Shown in pieces: positions 3,512 through 24,135 of a stretch of DNA of 44,983 nucleotides. Positions within the stretch are counted from its first letter, which is position 1. Each line of letters starts with the position of its first letter. The stretch lies in sequence record PP920551.1; one strand, given 5' to 3'. The stretch is from Escherichia phage KS_S9. A model generated the notes under the pieces. It did not search any database and was not told where the DNA came from. It saw only the letters and a program-made list of their open reading frames with translations. A program made the translations under genes and the position numbers.

Positions 3512-4598
3512 TCAATATTTGGCGGATCGAATGATTCGCCGTCACATCTTCACCCAGCGCCTGAGCAATGATCAGGCGCGGAGGGTGCTGGCTATGTGGG
3601 AGAAGTTCCGGCCCGCTTTACTGGGTAAGCTGACCGAGTTACTTGATGGCAAATCGTCAATGAATAACAAGGCACTTTCCACTCTGTTAACGCAACTCGA
3701 CAAGACCGTCAAAGCGGAACTGCGCACCGAGTTTAAGGCGCTGGCTGAAAGCCTTCAGGAGTTCGCCGACACCGAGGCTGATTATCTTGCCGACACATTA
3801 ACGGCAGCGATCCAGCCCGCGGTCGCAGTGCCTGCGGTTGAGGTGGTGGGTGTAGTGACCGGGGCACAGATCGCAGCGACGGCGATGAAAAACCCGTTCC
3901 AGGGTAATACGATGATGCAATGGCCTGACTCACTTTCTGAGTGGACCAGGACGCAGATCGGGAATCAGGTGCGCGCCGGATTCATCCAGGGCAAGCCGAC
4001 GATGGAAATTATCGCGGATGTGAGGCGCGCGCTAGGCGGTCGTAGTGCGCAAGCAATCTCAAGCGTTGTTAAATCCGCAGTCAACCACTATGCGGCTACA
4101 GCCCGCGAACTAATGGTAAAAGCAAATGACGATATTCTCGAAGGTCGCCAATGGTTATCTACATTGGACACGCATACTTCTCCCATGTGCCAGCTACGCG
4201 ATCGCCTGTTTTATCCGGTTGATGCTACTCCCGACACCAAAGGAAAGCGCGGCGGGAAAATGGTGGCTGGGTCACAATATGGCGCTGGTCCGGGCAAGTT
4301 GCATTATTGTTGCCGGTCGACGGAGACGTGGAAGGTTAAAGGCATGGAAGATTGGCCCAGTGGTAAGCGTCCGGCACTGAAGGCTGACGCGGGTCGATTG
4401 CTGAGTGAGCAGGTCGACGCGCAGACTGATTTCTTCTCATGGGTGCAGCGCCAGCCGCGCCATATCCTGGAAGAATTATACGGAGTGCAACGCGCCGACC
4501 AGATTATGCGCGGAGTGAAAGTGCCGAAGATGTTCACCGATTCCGGCGAACTAATGACTATCGCACAGCTTAAAAACCGGGGGTTATGGCGTGATTAA
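3495..4598 (+). CDS. Head morphogenesis protein (Mu F / SPP1 gp7-like minor head protein)
   Basis: 367 aa following portal; contains HYCCRS, resembling the HxNCRC signature of F-like minor head proteins. Confidence 0.7.
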   Translation: MAKTINQYLADRMIRRHIFTQRLSNDQARRVLAMWEKFRPALLGKLTELLDGKSSMNNKALSTLLTQLDKTVKAELRTEFKALAESLQEFADTEADYLADTLTAAIQPAVAVPAVEVVGVVTGAQIAATAMKNPFQGNTMMQWPDSLSEWTRTQIGNQVRAGFIQGKPTMEIIADVRRALGGRSAQAISSVVKSAVNHYAATARELMVKANDDILEGRQWLSTLDTHTSPMCQLRDRLFYPVDATPDTKGKRGGKMVAGSQYGAGPGKLHYCCRSTETWKVKGMEDWPSGKRPALKADAGRLLSEQVDAQTDFFSWVQRQPRHILEELYGVQRADQIMRGVKVPKMFTDSGELMTIAQLKNRGLWRD

Positions 4599-4920
4599 AT
4601 ATGCAGCGATTGGACTGGTTATCGGTCTGGCGGTAGGATTCTGGCTAGGCGACTCCTATCGTACTGGCGTAGTGGCGGAGGCGGCGCAAGAAGCGCAAGC
4701 CAAAGCCCAACGGCAGCAAACTAAAGTTGTTGAGCGCTCCGTGCAGGCCGAACAGGCCCGCGACGTAGAATACCGGACTATAACGAAAGAGGTTGTTAAA
4801 TATGTTACGCGCCCTAACCGCCCTGATTGTAGTTTTGATGCTGAGCGCGTGCGGATCAAGCAACGTGCCGTTGATGCCGCTAACGGAGTCGGCACTGCGA
4901 CCGCCGTGCAAGTTCGATAG
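4591..4920 (+). CDS. Rz-like inner-membrane spanin (i-spanin)
   Basis: GTG start with GGGGG RBS; N-terminal TM segment (AAIGLVIGLAVGFWLG) then Q/A/E/R-rich helical region; a lipoprotein ORF is embedded in its +1 frame. Confidence 0.6.
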   Translation: MIKYAAIGLVIGLAVGFWLGDSYRTGVVAEAAQEAQAKAQRQQTKVVERSVQAEQARDVEYRTITKEVVKYVTRPNRPDCSFDAERVRIKQRAVDAANGVGTATAVQVR

Positions 4921-5032
4921 CCCGTCCTCAGACCCCGACGAGGATTTGATGATTGACGTGAAAAATATGGAATGCGGGGCGAAGCTAAGGGCGCAGGTGT
5001 TGGAGTTGCAGCAAATAATTAAGGGGCCGTGA
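4802..5032 (+). CDS. Rz1-like outer-membrane lipoprotein spanin (o-spanin)
   Basis: Signal peptide MLRALTALIVVLMLSAC with lipobox LSAC; short Pro-rich mature part; starts inside the Rz-like ORF in another frame and extends past its stop; AAGAGG RBS. Confidence 0.65.
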   Translation: MLRALTALIVVLMLSACGSSNVPLMPLTESALRPPCKFDSPSSDPDEDLMIDVKNMECGAKLRAQVLELQQIIKGP

Positions 5033-16614: not shown

Positions 16615-17222
16615 CCACATTTAAATTATACGGCGTTTTAGGACGTCGATTCGGTAAAGTGCATAAGCTGGACTGCTTCACTCCGGGCGAGGGTATTACC
16701 GGCCTGTGCGTGAAGTTACCCGGCTTACAGGACTTTCTAATGTCGGCCCACCTTGACAATATGATGTTCAAGGTGCGCAAAGGCGACCACACGATGACCG
16801 GCTATGATGAGCTGGGTGAGTTCCACGGCAACCGCGTCGTCACCATCGCGCCGGTTATGACGGGTGCAAAAAGAGGTCTGGGCCAATTGCTGGCGGGTGT
16901 GGCAATAGTGGTGGCGTCGTTCTACACCGGCGGACTTGCTACTGCCGCTTTTGGGGCTTCGGCGGCGACCGCTGCCGCTATCGGGACGGCGACGTTTTCA
17001 TTCGGGATGTCGATGGCGCTGGGTGGCGTTATGCAATTGCTATCTCCGCAACCGAAAGGGTTGCAGACACGGCAGGATGTGGATAATAAGGCGTCGTATG
17101 CGTTCGGCGGGCCTGTAAACACGACCGCGCAAGGTACAGCACTTGGTGTATTATGGGGTGAGCGTGAGATCGGCGGCGCTATTATTTCCGCCGGAATCGT
17201 AACCGAGGACTTGAACGAATGA
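16605..17222 (+). CDS. Tail assembly protein (lambda gpI-like)
   Basis: 205 aa with Gly/Ala-rich hydrophobic C-terminal half; overlaps K and J genes (ATGA overlap with J). Confidence 0.65.
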   Translation: MAMTTFKLYGVLGRRFGKVHKLDCFTPGEGITGLCVKLPGLQDFLMSAHLDNMMFKVRKGDHTMTGYDELGEFHGNRVVTIAPVMTGAKRGLGQLLAGVAIVVASFYTGGLATAAFGASAATAAAIGTATFSFGMSMALGGVMQLLSPQPKGLQTRQDVDNKASYAFGGPVNTTAQGTALGVLWGEREIGGAIISAGIVTEDLNE

Positions 17223-20200
17223 CGATTATCTACGACGTCACAGGGCATAAAGGCGGCGGCGGCAAACAGCACACCCCACAGGAGACGCCAGACAGCCTGC
17301 ATTCGCTGGCTAAAATCCGCATCTTGCTTGCGCTGGGGGAAGGGGAATTCGAAAGTATTACCAGCGCCAGCGAATTGCGGCAGCGTGTTTACTTGGATGG
17401 AACGCCGATCCAGAACGCTGACCTGTCCGAAAACTTCCCTGGCGCGCGTGTGGAGTTCCGCCCCGGCACACAGCACCAGGATGTGATCCACGGATTTTCA
17501 GCGGTGGAAAGTGAGCAATCTGTCGGCGTAAAACTGGAAAACGGCACGCCGTGGGTGCGCCAGATTAACGATACCAGTCTGGACGCTGTTCGCATTCGCA
17601 TCGGCATTCCAGCCCTGTACACTAACGAAGATAATGGCGACCTGGTGGGCGGGCGCATCGACTATAAGATCGTTGTGTATACGGATAACGCCGACCCGCG
17701 TGAGTTCAGATTCGCCGCCGTTGGTAAAACAATGTCGCTATATGAGCGCGACCACCGCATCGAATTACCTCCGAACGTTAACACCGGCTGGCGCGTTGAG
17801 GTGCACCGCATAACGGCAGACTCCACATCGGCGAAAGTGGTTAATGATATCCGGGTGCAGTCCATCACTGAGATTATTGACGCCCGCCTGCGTTACCCGC
17901 TAACCGCGCTGTTGTTTGTGGAGTTCGACGCCAAAGCGTTCCAGAACATCCCGCGCGTGTCCATTAAGTGCAAAGGTCGCAAAGTTCTAATACCGAACAA
18001 CTACGACCCGATCAATCATACCTATTCCGGGGACTGGGACGGCACGTTTAAACGCGCATGGACGGATAACCCAGCGTGGCACTGGTACGATATTTGTATT
18101 ACTGAGCGCTTCGGCCTCGGTCGGCGTATCAAACCGCAAATGTTAAACCGGTACGCGCTCTACCAGATTGCGCAGCGCTGCGATCAGTTGGCCAGCGACG
18201 GCAACGGTGGTCGAGAAATCCGATTTAAGAATGATATGTACATTCAGTCACAGACGGATGCCTGGACAGTGCTTAAGGATTTAGCCGCCATCTTCGCCGG
18301 AATGACCTGGTGGGGCAACCAGATGTTGAATATCGTCAGTGACCAACCGGTCGCAGCAGTGTCGCACACTATCACCAACGCCTCGGTAATTGATGGTCGA
18401 TTCGACTACGCATCTGGCAGCCAGAAAACTCGCTATTCCACATTTGCGGTAGCATACGGCAACCCGAAGAACCACTATGAAGATGCCATCGCAACGGGGC
18501 AGCGCGTCGAACTTGTACGCCGCCATAAGATTAACCGTCTTGATATTACGGCGATCGGCTGTACGCGTGAATCTGAAGCGCAACGCCGCGGGCACTGGGC
18601 GCTAATTTCCAACCAGCTTGACCAGCAAGTTAGCTTTAAAGTTGGCATGGAAGGGTTATTCTTTATTCCCGGTAGCGTAGTCGCGATCGCGGATACAAAC
18701 ATTTCTGGCGGTTTTGAGACGCGCGGCGGTCGACTGTTGTCGGACCCCGGAACGCGTACCGTGCTGAACACGGACAGCGAAATCACATTCCGCCCTGGCG
18801 ATAAGTTCCTGGTGCGCACCGATAGCGGTAATGTGGAGACTCGCGAGATCGCCAGCGTCAACGGCAACAAGGTAACGCTAAAAACCGCACTGGACGCCAA
18901 CCCTATTCCAGACCAACCGTTTTGCGTTGACGGGGATGATATCCAGTTGCAAAAATTCCGCATCACCGATCTGGAATATGACGACTCTACGAGCACTTTC
19001 TCGGTGCGCGGGATTGAATACAACGATAGCAAATATGATGCCGTTGATAATGGCGCGCGCCTAGACCCGGGCATCTTTACGCAAGTGCCTGACGGGGTAA
19101 TGAAGGGGCCGGAATCCGTGACCATCACCCCGTCGCAGATTTCATCGCAAGGACAGCTAATCACCAACGTGGATATTGTTTTCCCGCCGGTGAAGGACGC
19201 CGTGGTGTATGAAATCCAGTGGCGACGCACCAGCTTGCAGAATATGGAAATCCAGTGGGGTAACGACTGGGTGAATATCCCGCGCACGGCATCGAACGGT
19301 GCGCACATCCCTAACGTGTTCTCAGGTAACTACCAGGCACGCGTCCGCGCAATTGGCATGGGCGAAATCTCGTCACCGTGGGTGTCTTCCGCAATCACGC
19401 CAGTTGAAGGTCGCCTCGGCGGTCTTAACGCGCCTATCATCACCAACGCGATTTCGGGCCTCCACCAGATCTTGTGGAAGTGGAACCACAACAACGCCGC
19501 TACGGATATTTCGTACACCGAGCTTGAAGTGCGCAAGACCGGTGAGACTGAATGGAAATTCCTTACCAACGTCCCATATCCGGGGGCGGAGTATGCGCAA
19601 ACATCGCTGGAGTTCGGAATTTACCAGCAGTTGCGCGCCCGTGTAGCGGATAAAATCGGCAACCTGTCGGACTGGTCGGCCCCGTTTGAAGGGCAGGTGA
19701 GTGACAAAGTTGACGAGTACATGAAGGGGCTTGATGACGAGTTCTTGACTTCCGAGGATGGTAAACGCTTCCAGGAAGCAATCAACACGATCCCGCAGGG
19801 TATTTACGAGGCGATGCTCACCGATGCGCAGCAATTGTTCAACGCCCGCGCTGAGTACAAGGGTATTTATGCGGAAATCTCGGTCGCGTATAACGTGGCG
19901 GCGGACGCCCACAAGGCGGTAGCGCAACTGGAAACGTTGATCGGCACTCGTCTTGACGATGCTGAAGCGGCAATCCACACGTTGCAGACGGCGCAGAGTA
20001 CGCAGGAACAGGCGTTCGCACAGTACCAGCAAACTGTTGCCGCTAAGTTTTCTGAACAGGAAGCCGCCATCCAGCAGGTACAAACGGCAACTGCGGACGT
20101 AGCGGGCGCGCTGGCTGAGTACAAGACCCATGTTGCGGCGCAGTTCGGTCAGCAGTCCGCCGCGATCGAGCAGAAGATGACGTCCTCGTTTAACCACTCT

Positions 20201-20638
20201 GGTGGTAGCGCAACTTACAGCCTTAAGGCTGGCGTGACGTATAACGGGACTTACTATGACGCTGGTATGCAGCTTTCAGTTGTGACGTCTGGCAGCGCGG
20301 TTAAATCTAGTATCGCGTTCAAAGCCGACCAGTTCTATATCATGCACCCGTCAAATGGGTCGCTTTCGTCCGCGTTTATCGTTGACGGCGGGCAGGTGTA
20401 TATTGACACGGCACGCATCAAGGACGCGTCAATCAACTTTGCACAGATCACGGACACGCTGCAATCGAATAACTACGACGGCAGTACGCGTGGTTGGCGC
20501 TTAGGGAAAGACGGAACGTTTATCAACCTGGGGACTGGAAGCGGCGGCGGGATGAAACAGACGAACACAAGAATCAGCGTGAAGGACGGAAACGGCGTTC
20601 TCCGCGTGCAGATTGGTGAGCTTACTGGTAGCTGGTAG
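17219..20638 (+). CDS. Tail tip attachment / host specificity protein (lambda gpJ-like central fibre)
   Basis: 1139 aa; largest tail ORF after the K/I genes, followed by terminator. Confidence 0.85.
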   Translation: MTIIYDVTGHKGGGGKQHTPQETPDSLHSLAKIRILLALGEGEFESITSASELRQRVYLDGTPIQNADLSENFPGARVEFRPGTQHQDVIHGFSAVESEQSVGVKLENGTPWVRQINDTSLDAVRIRIGIPALYTNEDNGDLVGGRIDYKIVVYTDNADPREFRFAAVGKTMSLYERDHRIELPPNVNTGWRVEVHRITADSTSAKVVNDIRVQSITEIIDARLRYPLTALLFVEFDAKAFQNIPRVSIKCKGRKVLIPNNYDPINHTYSGDWDGTFKRAWTDNPAWHWYDICITERFGLGRRIKPQMLNRYALYQIAQRCDQLASDGNGGREIRFKNDMYIQSQTDAWTVLKDLAAIFAGMTWWGNQMLNIVSDQPVAAVSHTITNASVIDGRFDYASGSQKTRYSTFAVAYGNPKNHYEDAIATGQRVELVRRHKINRLDITAIGCTRESEAQRRGHWALISNQLDQQVSFKVGMEGLFFIPGSVVAIADTNISGGFETRGGRLLSDPGTRTVLNTDSEITFRPGDKFLVRTDSGNVETREIASVNGNKVTLKTALDANPIPDQPFCVDGDDIQLQKFRITDLEYDDSTSTFSVRGIEYNDSKYDAVDNGARLDPGIFTQVPDGVMKGPESVTITPSQISSQGQLITNVDIVFPPVKDAVVYEIQWRRTSLQNMEIQWGNDWVNIPRTASNGAHIPNVFSGNYQARVRAIGMGEISSPWVSSAITPVEGRLGGLNAPIITNAISGLHQILWKWNHNNAATDISYTELEVRKTGETEWKFLTNVPYPGAEYAQTSLEFGIYQQLRARVADKIGNLSDWSAPFEGQVSDKVDEYMKGLDDEFLTSEDGKRFQEAINTIPQGIYEAMLTDAQQLFNARAEYKGIYAEISVAYNVAADAHKAVAQLETLIGTRLDDAEAAIHTLQTAQSTQEQAFAQYQQTVAAKFSEQEAAIQQVQTATADVAGALAEYKTHVAAQFGQQSAAIEQKMTSSFNHSGGSATYSLKAGVTYNGTYYDAGMQLSVVTSGSAVKSSIAFKADQFYIMHPSNGSLSSAFIVDGGQVYIDTARIKDASINFAQITDTLQSNNYDGSTRGWRLGKDGTFINLGTGSGGGMKQTNTRISVKDGNGVLRVQIGELTGSW

Positions 20639-20641
20639 TAT

Positions 20642-20661
20642 GGGGGCTTCGGCCCCTTTTT
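20642..20661 (+). terminator. Intrinsic terminator after J-like gene
   Basis: GGGGC-ttcg-GCCCC followed by TTTTT. Confidence 0.55.
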
Positions 20662-20674
20662 AACGAGGTTATTT

Positions 20675-20977
20675 ATGGCATTCGGTATCGCAACGTGGGA
20701 CGCGCAAGGACGCCCAAACAACTACGGCATTAAACCGGTAAGCGTGATCGGAAGGATTCATCTTGCGGAAGGACAAAAATCAGGCGCATGGTCATTCCCT
20801 GTACCGGCGGGGATGAAGGTCGGATACGTGGTCGCACTGGATAAAGGCGCGGTCGGGCCAGGACGCAGAATCACCGCCAGCGGGAACACTATCACGGTTT
20901 CCGCAGCAAGTGAGGTTGGTGGCGGGGTTTACTCCGCATCTGAATGTGACGTTATTGTTTTTGTGGAGCGAGCATAA
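20675..20977 (+). CDS. Hypothetical protein
   Basis: 100 aa, GAGG RBS, ATG 20675; downstream of J-like gene; no signal peptide seen. Confidence 0.45.
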   Translation: MAFGIATWDAQGRPNNYGIKPVSVIGRIHLAEGQKSGAWSFPVPAGMKVGYVVALDKGAVGPGRRITASGNTITVSAASEVGGGVYSASECDVIVFVERA

Positions 20978-21651
20978 TGGCTAATTACGGCGCGTTGATT
21001 GACTTACCAAACGGCAACCCGTTTATCACGCCAGAATCGACGCCGTTTTGTCTATTCCGCCGTGTGGTTGTTGGGTCTTCGGCTAACGGCACTGCGCAGT
21101 CGGCGGCTGCCGATATTAATTTGGGAGGTGACTACCCTGCAATAGCGTTTGTGAAAACTACGCACACCGCCCAGCCGACCGTCGTAGGGTCTTCTCGCGT
21201 TGGTAATGTGGTGAAGGTGAGCGCCAGCAATCCATTCAGGCAGGGCTTCACGATGACGGCTTACATCTTTGCTATATTCCCACAGACCCTTCCGCGGTGG
21301 GGCTTCGCTATCTGGGATAAGACGGGGAAGCTAGTGCTTACTAATGAGAGTCGCGTACTAAGTGATTTAGTTACCGTCGGATCGCCAGGCGCTAACGGGG
21401 GGATTAACATTGACCAGACGCTAAACGGCAGCTACGCCGTCGCTCCGGGCATATTGGGGTCTACGCTGATCCGGTTTTTTGTGCAGGGCCAGCCGCAAGT
21501 AATATCAGTAACGGCGTACACGGGGGCCAGATTTGATGGGTCGCGAACGCGTATATCGGCAGCGTCGTCGGGGAACGCCACGGGGGGTGTGGTGGGGTAT
21601 ACTAACAACGGCAACGCGATTATGGCGATTAACACCGCCAATTATGATTGA
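20977..21651 (+). CDS. Hypothetical protein (possible tail-associated)
   Basis: 224 aa, TAATG overlap with preceding gene; Gly/Ser/Thr-rich; no family recognised. Confidence 0.45.
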   Translation: MANYGALIDLPNGNPFITPESTPFCLFRRVVVGSSANGTAQSAAADINLGGDYPAIAFVKTTHTAQPTVVGSSRVGNVVKVSASNPFRQGFTMTAYIFAIFPQTLPRWGFAIWDKTGKLVLTNESRVLSDLVTVGSPGANGGINIDQTLNGSYAVAPGILGSTLIRFFVQGQPQVISVTAYTGARFDGSRTRISAASSGNATGGVVGYTNNGNAIMAINTANYD

Positions 21652-21653
21652 AG

Positions 21654-21676
21654 AAAGCCCCGAAAGGGGCTTATTT
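21654..21676. terminator. Bidirectional terminator between 20977..21651 (+) and lipoprotein gene (-)
   Basis: AAGCCCC-gaaa-GGGGCTT hairpin, T-rich on both sides. Confidence 0.5.
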
Positions 21677-21889
21677 GCAGGTTGTGCTTTTGAAGTGGTC
21701 GACCGACACATACTGGAAGTTGAACGGATACCCAGCCTTGAGCATTTTGTGTCCACTAAAGTCGGCAACCCCAAACACCGGGACCGAGTATTCCATGCCG
21801 CTATTAACATATGTCGCGTCGCAGACTTTAGTCGGCATGTTGGCACAACCAGACAAAAGAACCGCACAAATCATAATTAAAGTTTTCAT
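21671..21889 (-). CDS. Small outer-membrane lipoprotein, Cor-like superinfection exclusion candidate
   Basis: 72 aa from ATG 21889 (GGGGA RBS): signal peptide MKTLIMICAVLLSGC with lipobox LSGC; opposite strand, between tail-tip genes and tail fibre. Confidence 0.55.
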   Translation of the reverse strand: MKTLIMICAVLLSGCANMPTKVCDATYVNSGMEYSVPVFGVADFSGHKMLKAGYPFNFQYVSVDHFKSTTCK

Positions 21890-21969
21890 GGTATCATCCC
21901 CTATATTTGGTTGAGTTTTAGTATTACACCGCTCAACCAGGATTGCAACCAATTTAAGAGGATTTAGCT

Positions 21970-24135
21970 ATGGCAGCGGGTACGCTATCCGTAACGAACA
22001 ACAGCAAGGCGGTAGTAGGAGTCGGCACAACGTTTACCGCGTTCAAGGCTGGCGACTTCTTATCGCTGGTGGTGGGGCAAGTGCCTTACACCGTGGCGAT
22101 CGCATCAATTGAAAGTAACACGGCGCTTACGCTGGTGCTGCCGTTCGACGGCCCAACGGCAACCGGCCTCGCGTGGGATGGCGTTAAGCGCGATACCATG
22201 TCGCTGGCGACGATGGGCGTTACCGTACAGGCCCAAAAAGCATTGCGCTTGATGATTGCAGACGAAAACAACTGGCGTGCAATCTTCGGTGACGCTGAAG
22301 AAATCACAGTGACGTTACCTAACGGGCAAGTCATGCAGGGGATGTCATGGGGCTACCTGTCGGAATTGCTTAAGAACGTAGACCCCGTTGAGATGCGCGA
22401 CCTCGCAGCGCAAGCCGAAGCATCGAAATCCGCAGCGCAAGGATTTCGGGATGAGGCCGAGGAGTGGGCGCAAAGCGTTAACGCGGATAACCTGCTAACC
22501 AAATCCGGCAACCTGGCAGGACTCACCGACAAACCGCAAGCCTGGCTTAACGTTCGACCAGACGGGGCAACGCCATTGGCGGGCGACCCTGTAGGTGACT
22601 ACGACGCCGCGACAAAGCGCTGGGTGCAGAACCTTATCAACGGGGGCACGGTTGGCCCTACAATGAACGGCGTCATGAACTATGGCGTAGGCGACTTCCA
22701 TTTACGGGACAGCCGCGCGTATATTCAACCTTACGAAGTCGTATCCGACGGGCAACTTCTTAACCGCGCGGATTGGCCTGAGTTGTGGGCGTATGCGCAA
22801 ATGCTGTCGCCAATTAGTGACGCTACCTGGCTGGCTAACCCAAATCAGCGCGGCAAGTATTCTACGGGTGACGGCACAACGACCTTCCGAGTGCCCGACC
22901 GTAACGGCGTTCAGCCTGGGTCCATATTCGGCTTGTTCGGCAGGGGTGACGGCGGGCAAAGTGGCAACGATGGGTATATCTACGAATCAGGAGCACCTAA
23001 CATCACCGGCCGCATCGAGATACACGGCGGCGGGGCCGCGAGTATTATCAACCTTGAAAGTGGCGCGTTCCAGGGGGCCGGCGGTGCGGCTTCGCAATAT
23101 CGATCGCCAGGCGGGCTAACTGTTAGTAACGGCGCTGTCTCCTACGGCGTCATTAACATGGACGCCTCGAAGGTCAGCGCGATCTATGGCCGGACCGTAT
23201 CGGAGTTGCGCCCGAATAACTTCATGGGCGTGTGGGTGATCCGCGCATCTGGTGGATTTGTTGCCGCGAATACGTCGTGGTCAGTAATCAACGGCGACGC
23301 CACTAAACCACCAGCGGGCACTACGGTAGACGGCGGAAGCATTGTGTCTGAATACCGTGTTGGTACTTCTTTACACGCGGAAGCAAAGCTGCGCGTACGT
23401 GCGAATATCGACGGTGAGACTTACGCCCGCCTGGCGATCACTAACCTGGAGACGGCGCAGAGTTCTGGCATCGACTTTAACACCAAAGGCGAGATGACCT
23501 TGCCGGGCAAGTTTACGGTGAACAGTTCAGGGTCAGATGTCGTCGGCAGTCTGACAGTCAGCCGGGGGGCATACATACAAATAGGGATGCGACCATATTA
23601 CACCGTAGGCGACCCTGTGCCGGATGACGTTGTGGGCGGCCAGACGTTCTTCGAACCGGCACTAGATAAGTCTGGCACTCGATATTTTCGCCTGTTTATG
23701 CGACGTAAGGATGGGAACCGTACCGGCGAAATTATGCTTAACTTCCCGACTACCGCATCGGGGACTATCGCGCTGCAAGGCACATCAGGCCGCGAGTATA
23801 AGAAAGATATTGCCGATGCGGACGCAAGCGAGGCTATGGACCGCATTAACGGCCAGCGCCTTGTTAACTTCGTGTATAAGGATGATGAGCAGGCCCGCCA
23901 GCGCTTCGGTATTATCGCCGAGGAAGCGGAGTTAATTGCGCCGCAGTACGTTAAACACCACGAGTTCCCGATCGAGGATATTCTCGACGAAGACGGCAAC
24001 AAGATCGGGGAGAAGATGACGGACCGCCCATCCATCGACGTTAACCCGATCGTAATGGACTTGATGGGGTGTGTTCAATATCTCAATAAGCAGGTGGAGG
24101 ATTTGAAGGCCGAGATCGCGGCGTTGAAGAAATAA
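21970..24135 (+). CDS. Tail fibre protein with C-terminal intramolecular chaperone (peptidase S74-like) domain
   Basis: 721 aa; Gly-rich middle; C-terminal ~115 aa start near SGREYKKDI, resembling the autocleavage motif of fibre chaperone domains; AAGAGG RBS. Confidence 0.75.
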   Translation: MAAGTLSVTNNSKAVVGVGTTFTAFKAGDFLSLVVGQVPYTVAIASIESNTALTLVLPFDGPTATGLAWDGVKRDTMSLATMGVTVQAQKALRLMIADENNWRAIFGDAEEITVTLPNGQVMQGMSWGYLSELLKNVDPVEMRDLAAQAEASKSAAQGFRDEAEEWAQSVNADNLLTKSGNLAGLTDKPQAWLNVRPDGATPLAGDPVGDYDAATKRWVQNLINGGTVGPTMNGVMNYGVGDFHLRDSRAYIQPYEVVSDGQLLNRADWPELWAYAQMLSPISDATWLANPNQRGKYSTGDGTTTFRVPDRNGVQPGSIFGLFGRGDGGQSGNDGYIYESGAPNITGRIEIHGGGAASIINLESGAFQGAGGAASQYRSPGGLTVSNGAVSYGVINMDASKVSAIYGRTVSELRPNNFMGVWVIRASGGFVAANTSWSVINGDATKPPAGTTVDGGSIVSEYRVGTSLHAEAKLRVRANIDGETYARLAITNLETAQSSGIDFNTKGEMTLPGKFTVNSSGSDVVGSLTVSRGAYIQIGMRPYYTVGDPVPDDVVGGQTFFEPALDKSGTRYFRLFMRRKDGNRTGEIMLNFPTTASGTIALQGTSGREYKKDIADADASEAMDRINGQRLVNFVYKDDEQARQRFGIIAEEAELIAPQYVKHHEFPIEDILDEDGNKIGEKMTDRPSIDVNPIVMDLMGCVQYLNKQVEDLKAEIAALKK

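Follow-up and report, generated by a model that had tools for sequence, protein, structure and literature searches.

Exclusion lipoproteins in the closest described phages

The Cor family of phage lipoproteins, its relationship in fold to the Llp protein of phage T5, and its link to the host receptor FhuA have already been published. Cor inactivates FhuA (Uc-Mass 2004, as cited in PMC3594210), and the inactivation is described as proven experimentally for the Cor proteins of phi80, N15, and the HK022-type lambdoid phages. The cor genes of these temperate phages share the strand of the tail genes and act as morons, being expressed from a prophage. In the virulent phages T1 and Hanrivervirus aaroes, cor lies antisense after homologs of J, gp22, and gp23, with a hairpin terminator between in T1, where an exonuclease VIII recombination gene follows cor. 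In BASEL, small siphoviruses including Dhillonvirus have receptor-binding loci downstream of gpJ, and cognate superinfection exclusion proteins were proposed earlier to be encoded beside such loci (PMC8594841). Ten BASEL phages, from the Drexlerviridae and Dhillonvirus, are reported to have a three-gene cor cassette, and FhuA is the receptor of every one of them (PMC13164509).

Two further systems bear on the comparison. The structure of T5 Llp bound to FhuA has been solved, and Cor was proposed likely to act in the same way (PMC9586334); binding of FhuA by Llp requires a Cys11-Cys58 disulfide (PMC9586334; bioRxiv 10.64898/2026.03.26.714494). A shared fold, and probably a shared mechanism, has been concluded for Cor and Llp (PMC13164509, PMC9586334, bioRxiv 10.64898/2026.03.26.714494), and the molecular mechanism of Cor itself, in contrast to that of Llp, has also been called unsettled (bioRxiv 10.64898/2026.03.26.714494). 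Finally, cryo-EM showed that the Rtp45 lipoprotein binds a different outer membrane protein, LptD, from the periplasm (PMC12685063).

The cor gene of KS_S9 and its surroundings

The DNA analyzed here is the 44,983-nucleotide sequence record PP920551.1 of Escherichia phage KS_S9, the whole of which we call the window, and it represents an essentially complete Dhillonvirus genome. The features relevant to cor are as follows.

4591 to 4920 and 4802 to 5032: Rz/Rz1-type spanin pair (PHROG spanin, 4.9e-37 and 3.9e-26)
17219 to 20638, plus strand: gpJ-like central tail tip protein, 1139 aa (Pfam FNIII-A_GpJ, Phage_Tail_Tip, and Phage-tail_3)
20675 to 20977, plus strand: 100-aa gene, homolog of N15 gp22 and T1 ST32 (PHROG 557)
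20977 to 21651, plus strand: 224-aa gene, homolog of N15 gp23 and T1 ST31 (PHROG 425)
21655 to 21672, both strands: GC-rich hairpin AAGCCCC-GAAA-GGGGCTT with a 7-bp stem and a GAAA loop, overlapping the cor stop codon
21671 to 21889, minus strand: cor, a 72-aa prolipoprotein gene with an ATG start (sequence, PHROG, NCBIfam, and dN/dS); signal peptide, codons 1 to 14; predicted lipidation site Cys15, 21845 to 21847; mature domain, 57 aa; stop codon, 21671 to 21673
21845 to 21856, minus strand: lipobox L-S-G-C, codons 12 to 15 (sequence and rule check)
21897 to 21901, minus strand: Shine-Dalgarno-like GGGGA, 7 nt before the cor ATG (read from the sequence)
21920 to 21948, minus strand: putative sigma-70 promoter of cor, with a −35 element TTGCAA (21943 to 21948), a 17-nt spacer, and an extended −10 element TG-T-AATACT (21920 to 21928)
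21970 to 24135, plus strand: lateral tail fiber, 721 aa, with a C-terminal Peptidase_S74 chaperone domain

A preliminary description, made from the letters of the sequence, had reported a 72-aa open reading frame encoding a Cor-like lipoprotein antisense between the tail tip genes and the tail fiber gene, and both the coordinates and the strand proved exact. The product begins with MKTLIMICAVLLSGC, continues as ANMPTK, and ends in TTCK (full translation, MKTLIMICAVLLSGCANMPTKVCDATYVNSGMEYSVPVFGVADFSGHKMLKAGYPFNFQYVSVDHFKSTTCK). A 93-aa version initiated at a TTG codon at 21952 is unlikely, as its start codon would precede the putative promoter and its signal peptide would follow 21 hydrophilic residues. 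Comparison of cor with seven Dhillonvirus alleles gave dN/dS values of 0.03 to 0.08 at dS values of 0.35 to 1.4, and thus the frame is under strong purifying selection.

The product was assigned to the Cor family by two models: the NCBIfam equivalog NF047972, "phage exclusion lipoprotein Cor," matched residues 2 to 71 with 60.4 bits against a cutoff of 31, and PHROG 1119, "Cor superinfection exclusion protein," matched residues 1 to 72 at 1.4e-27. When the family was taken to comprise prolipoproteins of 70 to 80 aa with a lipobox cysteine, the KS_S9 protein had not only the model match, the length, and the lipobox but also the second and third cysteines, the AGYPF motif, and the position after gpJ, gp22, and gp23. 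A tblastn search with the protein matched 245 phage records, mostly annotated as Cor, with 82 to 97% identity in Dhillonvirus, 47 to 58% in T1-like Drexlerviridae, and 40 to 42% in phi80, N15, and HK-type lambdoids. Alignment to the Cor proteins of T1, N15, phi80, and Hanrivervirus indicated that G14, C15, C23, C71, A52-G53-Y54-P55-F56, and F66 were invariant. C23, G53, F66, and C71 were also invariant across an 18-member family alignment, and G14 and C15, invariant in six reference Cor proteins, were nearly so in that alignment, one truncated member of which is without the lipobox region.

Broader searches indicated how restricted the family is. A word-indexed protein search returned only six close homologs. 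When 1.84 billion representatives were searched exhaustively, there were 12 matches, one of which, P0016, was judged spurious, being a low-complexity protein of 1359 aa made of Ig repeats. Only about ten related clusters were found, from which we conclude that Cor is a narrow family of enterobacterial phages. In Pfam, no Cor family model was matched and the sole result was a sub-threshold match to herpes gp350; against PDB sequences, the single protein sequence had chance matches only (gamma-crystallin, E 0.7).

The genomic context agreed with the family assignment. The cor gene is convergent with the 224-aa gene and diverges from the tail fiber gene over an 80-nt intergenic region, so the antisense placement given in the preliminary description matched the gene map, and the T1/phi80/N15-type position it had proposed was borne out by the order J, 100-aa gene, 224-aa gene, cor that is common to all three phages. 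The same description implied that an antisense cor in a virulent phage would be new, which did not hold: T1 and Hanrivervirus are virulent and have the same orientation, and Cor had been described before in Dhillonvirus phages that use FhuA (PMC13164509, PMC8594841). Like the KS_S9 protein, Cor of T1 (ST30) and of other Drexlerviridae has the same length, the lipobox, the cysteine pair, and AGYPF, at 49 to 58% identity. The arrangement in KS_S9 is therefore the normal T1-type arrangement, except that a divergent lateral tail fiber gene stands where T1 has its exonuclease VIII gene. The phi80, N15, and HK022-type lambdoid Cor proteins likewise share the conserved residues and the upstream cassette, at 40 to 43% identity, whereas cor of KS_S9 is inverted with respect to the co-directional, prophage-expressed genes of phi80 and N15 and belongs to a virulent phage.

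Phages Envy and JLBYU37 aligned with the first 25 kb of the window over 100% of its length, with an identity of about 93%. The 1.5-kb cor locus was 93 to 95% identical to those of JLBYU37 and Envy and 95 to 96% identical to those of JLBYU60, Over9000, SM_S24, and others, in whose records the gene bears the name super-infection exclusion protein or Cor. In the annotation of Envy, the closest annotated relative, there is no integrase and no repressor, and DNA polymerase, helicase-primase, and lysis genes are present. That gene content, with replication genes of its own, fits the virulent lifestyle that had been claimed for KS_S9. We conclude that the interpretation of the gene as cor is supported and that the gene itself is already known, being annotated routinely in near-identical coliphages; its family has been characterized, and the genus is well sampled.

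Other features of the neighborhood were recorded. Positions 20575 to 20628, in the last part of gpJ, share 81% identity with the end of N15 gene 21. The 100-aa and 224-aa proteins had no signal peptide or long hydrophobic stretch when read by eye and no Pfam or NCBIfam match, and the names given to these two genes look like inherited mis-annotations; the locus containing the 224-aa gene has been treated as a probable FhuA receptor-binding module (PMC8594841). The spanin genes overlap, encode a 109-aa protein and a 76-aa lipoprotein beginning with MLRALTALIVVLMLSAC, and lie amid head morphogenesis genes. By synteny with Envy, holin and endolysin lie far from Rz/Rz1, near 42.1 to 43.1 kb. No tRNAs were found in the window.

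Beyond Dhillonvirus, cor adjoined gp22/gp23 homologs in 54 of 80 Cor loci from IMG/VR, being convergent with the gp23 homolog in 24 and co-directional with it in 30, and the remaining 26 had neither gp22 nor gp23 within 4 kb. These orphan loci (among L031 to L051, L055, L060, L062, and L065) also had no J homolog within 4 kb, and their cor alleles were about 39 to 41% identical to the KS_S9 protein. Two contigs (L035 with L076 and L040 with L082) each had both an orphan cor and a cassette cor, separated by about 11 kb. Some records labeled as Campylobacter phages (A144 and A13a) or as an Acinetobacter phage (NJ01) also contained this cor in near-identical Dhillonvirus or T1-like loci; they are probably coliphage contaminants or carry mislabeled hosts.

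Expression signals, lipidation, and predicted fold

The good ribosome binding site that had been reported for cor is present as GGGGA with 7-nt spacing to the ATG, and each of the eight correctly extracted Dhillonvirus sequences in an alignment (the GeorgBuechner row was left out) had either GGGGA or GGAGA there. The putative sigma-70 promoter upstream matches 8 of 12 consensus positions, which is under the threshold of the consensus scan used for promoters and terminators, and the scan reported neither this promoter nor the hairpin. Its TTGCA(A/T), TG, and AATACT elements were kept in the same eight of eight sequences; the assignment as the cor promoter is proposed from visual reading and this conservation. 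Two promoter-like sites that the scan did report were not adopted for cor because they overlapped its start codon or lay on the other strand. From the candidate promoter, host RNA polymerase would transcribe cor in the direction opposite to the tail genes, probably early if Llp is a guide, and a promoter facing that way would leave cor uncoupled from late structural transcription.

Two additional elements lie within or close to this region. A plus-strand promoter-like sequence, CAGACA-16-CATAAT (21850 to 21877), sits inside the signal peptide codons of cor and is aimed at the tail fiber gene; if it is a true promoter, it could account for the retention of the signal peptide DNA in cassettes of different types. 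An inverted repeat of 7 bp, GGTTGAG...CTCAACC (21909 to 21937), flanks the putative −10 element and could be an operator or a hairpin in the 5′ untranslated region of the tail fiber mRNA. Among relatives, the repeat had one compensatory variant (L011) and several variants that break pairing.

A bidirectional terminator had also been claimed for cor. The 224-aa gene and cor converge, their stop codons are 19 nt apart, and the hairpin takes up this interval. It had a folding energy of −15.7 kcal/mol on the plus strand (z −2.7) and −13.6 kcal/mol on the minus strand (z −3.6), better than all 200 shuffles on either strand, and the annotation of T1 puts a rho-independent terminator at the corresponding site. 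The T tracts, on the other hand, are weak (ATTTG on the plus strand and TCTTC on the minus strand), which accounts for the silence of the consensus scan. We regard the hairpin as a plausible candidate for a two-way terminator.

The lipoprotein signal peptide of the preliminary description was confirmed as a motif: LSGC ends in Cys15, and the K2 n-region, the uncharged h-region, and L12-S13-G14-C15 agree with the PROSITE-type lipoprotein rule. The rule also matched 15 of 1675 candidate starts in the window, compared with 4.8 ± 2.0 in shuffled sequences. By itself the rule is therefore weak evidence, and the case for a lipoprotein rests on homology and conservation rather than on the motif. Lipidation at Cys15 and an outer membrane location are predicted from the lipobox and from the alanine at position +2, as the Lol rule leads one to expect outer membrane sorting rather than inner membrane retention for that residue. 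The 72-aa precursor would thus be exported by Sec, lipidated at Cys15, cleaved by signal peptidase II, and sorted outward by Lol.

An AlphaFold2 model of Cor computed with 18 family members had a mean pLDDT of 85.7, rising to about 95 over the mature domain, and consisted of four beta-strands and a short helical turn. Foldseek placed Llp (8a60_B) at probability 1.00 among SH3/Tudor-like barrels, with an E value of 0.07, which is usual for so small a domain. At the level of sequence, T5 Llp (PDB 8A60, 7QJF) belongs to a separate family and had no match to the Cor models. A phmmer search with the single cor product found no match to it, identity in the structural alignment was 22 to 24%, and a Cor profile matched Llp at an E value of 0.0058 over the signal peptide and first strand only. 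The Llp fold is a small beta-rich domain with a disulfide joining its N and C termini, and the predicted fold of Cor matched it. The counterparts of the Llp cysteines are Cys9 and Cys57 of mature Cor, equal to precursor Cys23 and Cys71, and a bond between them probably joins both ends of the mature domain. We conclude that the mature domain of Cor is predicted to share an Llp-like fold, in which the 57 aa would form a small SH3-like beta-barrel. The genes differ in setting, in that llp of T5 adjoins the pb5 receptor-binding gene whereas cor of KS_S9 adjoins the gp22/gp23 cassette.

Cassette exchange, receptor, and proposed action

Comparison with Dhillonviruses that use LptD indicated that cor occupies a fixed slot filled by different lipoproteins and that part of the gene belongs to an exchangeable cassette.

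21842 to 21969 of the window (3533 to 3660 in L007; around 3920 to 4000 in L089 to L103): lipoprotein slot
20478 to 21841: exchangeable receptor cassette, extending from the last ~53 codons of gpJ through the 100-aa and 224-aa genes to the mature part of Cor

In 15 of 15 IMG/VR Dhillonvirus loci, as well as in Oekolampad and StarDew, a small lipoprotein gene began 79 to 81 nt upstream of the tail fiber ATG and diverged from it, and all of the encoded lipoproteins began with MKTLI. Four mature types were found in the slot, namely Cor (PHROG 1119), the Oekolampad LptD-specific and HK578 types (both PHROG 4281), and PHROG 12984, and the four were unrelated or distant from one another. The Oekolampad lipoprotein, bas18_0026, is related to Rtp45 and has the identical slot, with 100% identity to KS_S9 throughout the intergenic region, including the promoter region and 5′ untranslated region, and the entire signal peptide (MKTLIMICAVLLSGCA). 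Similarity collapsed immediately after the lipobox Cys-Ala, at 21842, beyond which the mature domains of bas18_0026 and Cor are unrelated; the Oekolampad lipoprotein targets LptD and is encoded on the same strand as a 321-aa receptor-binding protein. The mature domain of Cor did not match PHROG 4281, the only matches of the KS_S9 protein being PHROG 1119 and a weak one over the signal peptide. The blastn breakpoints against LptD-type Dhillonviruses fell at 20477, inside gpJ, and at 21842, and thus 20478 to 21841 is the exchangeable cassette, in place of which Oekolampad and StarDew carry a different one. The loss of similarity at 20477, together with the resemblance of 20575 to 20628 to N15 gene 21, suggests that the last ~53 codons of gpJ (20478 to 20638) form a cassette-specific docking tail for receptor-binding proteins.

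Exchange was also detected within the FhuA cassette (20550 to 21850). The 100-aa and 224-aa genes had 98 to 100% identity to those of Envy and about 40 to 70% to those of SSL-2009a, whereas the mature cor region was closer to SSL-2009a (84 to 100%) than to Envy (74 to 86%), with the mosaic breakpoint near 21700, by the hairpin. We conclude that cor recombines independently of the putative receptor-binding genes.

One model for these boundaries, which we consider evenly poised between right and wrong, is a fixed "expression socket." Its parts would be the 80 nt between the divergent cor and tail fiber genes, with the promoter and the ribosome binding site, and (in Cor and LptD-type alleles) the signal peptide up to Cys-Ala. 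Unrelated receptor-specific mature domains would be exchanged into it jointly with the ~53 terminal codons of gpJ and the genes for receptor binding, such that the junction at the signal peptidase II site would be a selected module boundary. If true, the junction would permit a one-step switch of receptor and matching self-exclusion, and the shuffling of cor apart from the receptor-binding genes would persist within one receptor type. No published description of the signal peptide junction was found in the searchable literature.

FhuA is the likely receptor of KS_S9 by extension from relatives in which the locus is 93 to 96% identical. JLBYU37 and JLBYU60 were isolated as FhuA dependent, and Envy and bob are reported to be so (PMC10373560). 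One alternative is that Cor blocks another protein, such as BtuB or another TonB-dependent transporter; Cor-like and Llp-like lipoproteins have been reported beside phages that use BtuB (PMC13164509). Both the FhuA dependence of the phages with this locus and the report of the three-gene cassette in FhuA users only (PMC13164509) make such a target very unlikely. A broader dependence, in which Cor does not act on FhuA alone and needs other outer membrane proteins or the two upstream cassette genes, draws on a speculation by the authors of one paper that those two genes have a role in exclusion and on the unsettled status given to the mechanism in bioRxiv 10.64898/2026.03.26.714494. It is improbable, given that Cor by itself, when produced by temperate phages, is reported to inactivate FhuA functions (as cited in PMC3594210), that 26 of 80 Cor loci are without a nearby gp22/gp23, that cor recombines independently of gp22/gp23 within Dhillonvirus, and that the predicted fold matches Llp, a direct binder of FhuA. 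As a small phage-encoded outer membrane lipoprotein, the product could in principle be an Rz1-like outer membrane spanin subunit or another lysis lipoprotein, an identity so unlikely as to be negligible: the overlapping Rz/Rz1 pair is already present at 4591 to 5032, the protein had no spanin family match, and cor is neither inside nor beside an i-spanin gene. The o-spanin identity was therefore rejected.

These alternatives concern what Cor does, and one further alternative keeps the mechanism and concerns what Cor is for. The chief benefit may be that progeny are not wasted on FhuA in debris and infected cells, rather than that competitors are excluded, a view we hold tentatively and somewhat short of even. 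Such a role has been proposed for Llp and for the superinfection exclusion lipoproteins of lytic siphophages (PMC12685063, PMC13164509), KS_S9 is virulent and so has no lysogen to protect, and every Dhillonvirus examined keeps a slot lipoprotein matched to its own receptor cassette. Against it, Cor of temperate phages clearly protects lysogens, and the two benefits are compatible with each other and inseparable by sequence.

We conclude that the gene at 21671 to 21889 is, with high probability, a Cor-family superinfection exclusion lipoprotein gene of a virulent Dhillonvirus. Once in the outer membrane, Cor would act on FhuA from the periplasm and close it as a receptor, presumably by an allosteric mechanism. 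The infected cell and its debris would then cease to adsorb KS_S9 as well as the FhuA-dependent phages T1, T5, and phi80, and ferrichrome uptake would be impaired. For phage cocktails, a cell infected by KS_S9 would be expected to resist other FhuA-dependent phages, and the presence of Cor predicts FhuA as the terminal receptor. The boundary at the shared signal peptide illustrates the joint swap of receptor-binding and self-exclusion modules, and the limits of the cassette could guide the receptor re-targeting of small siphophages.
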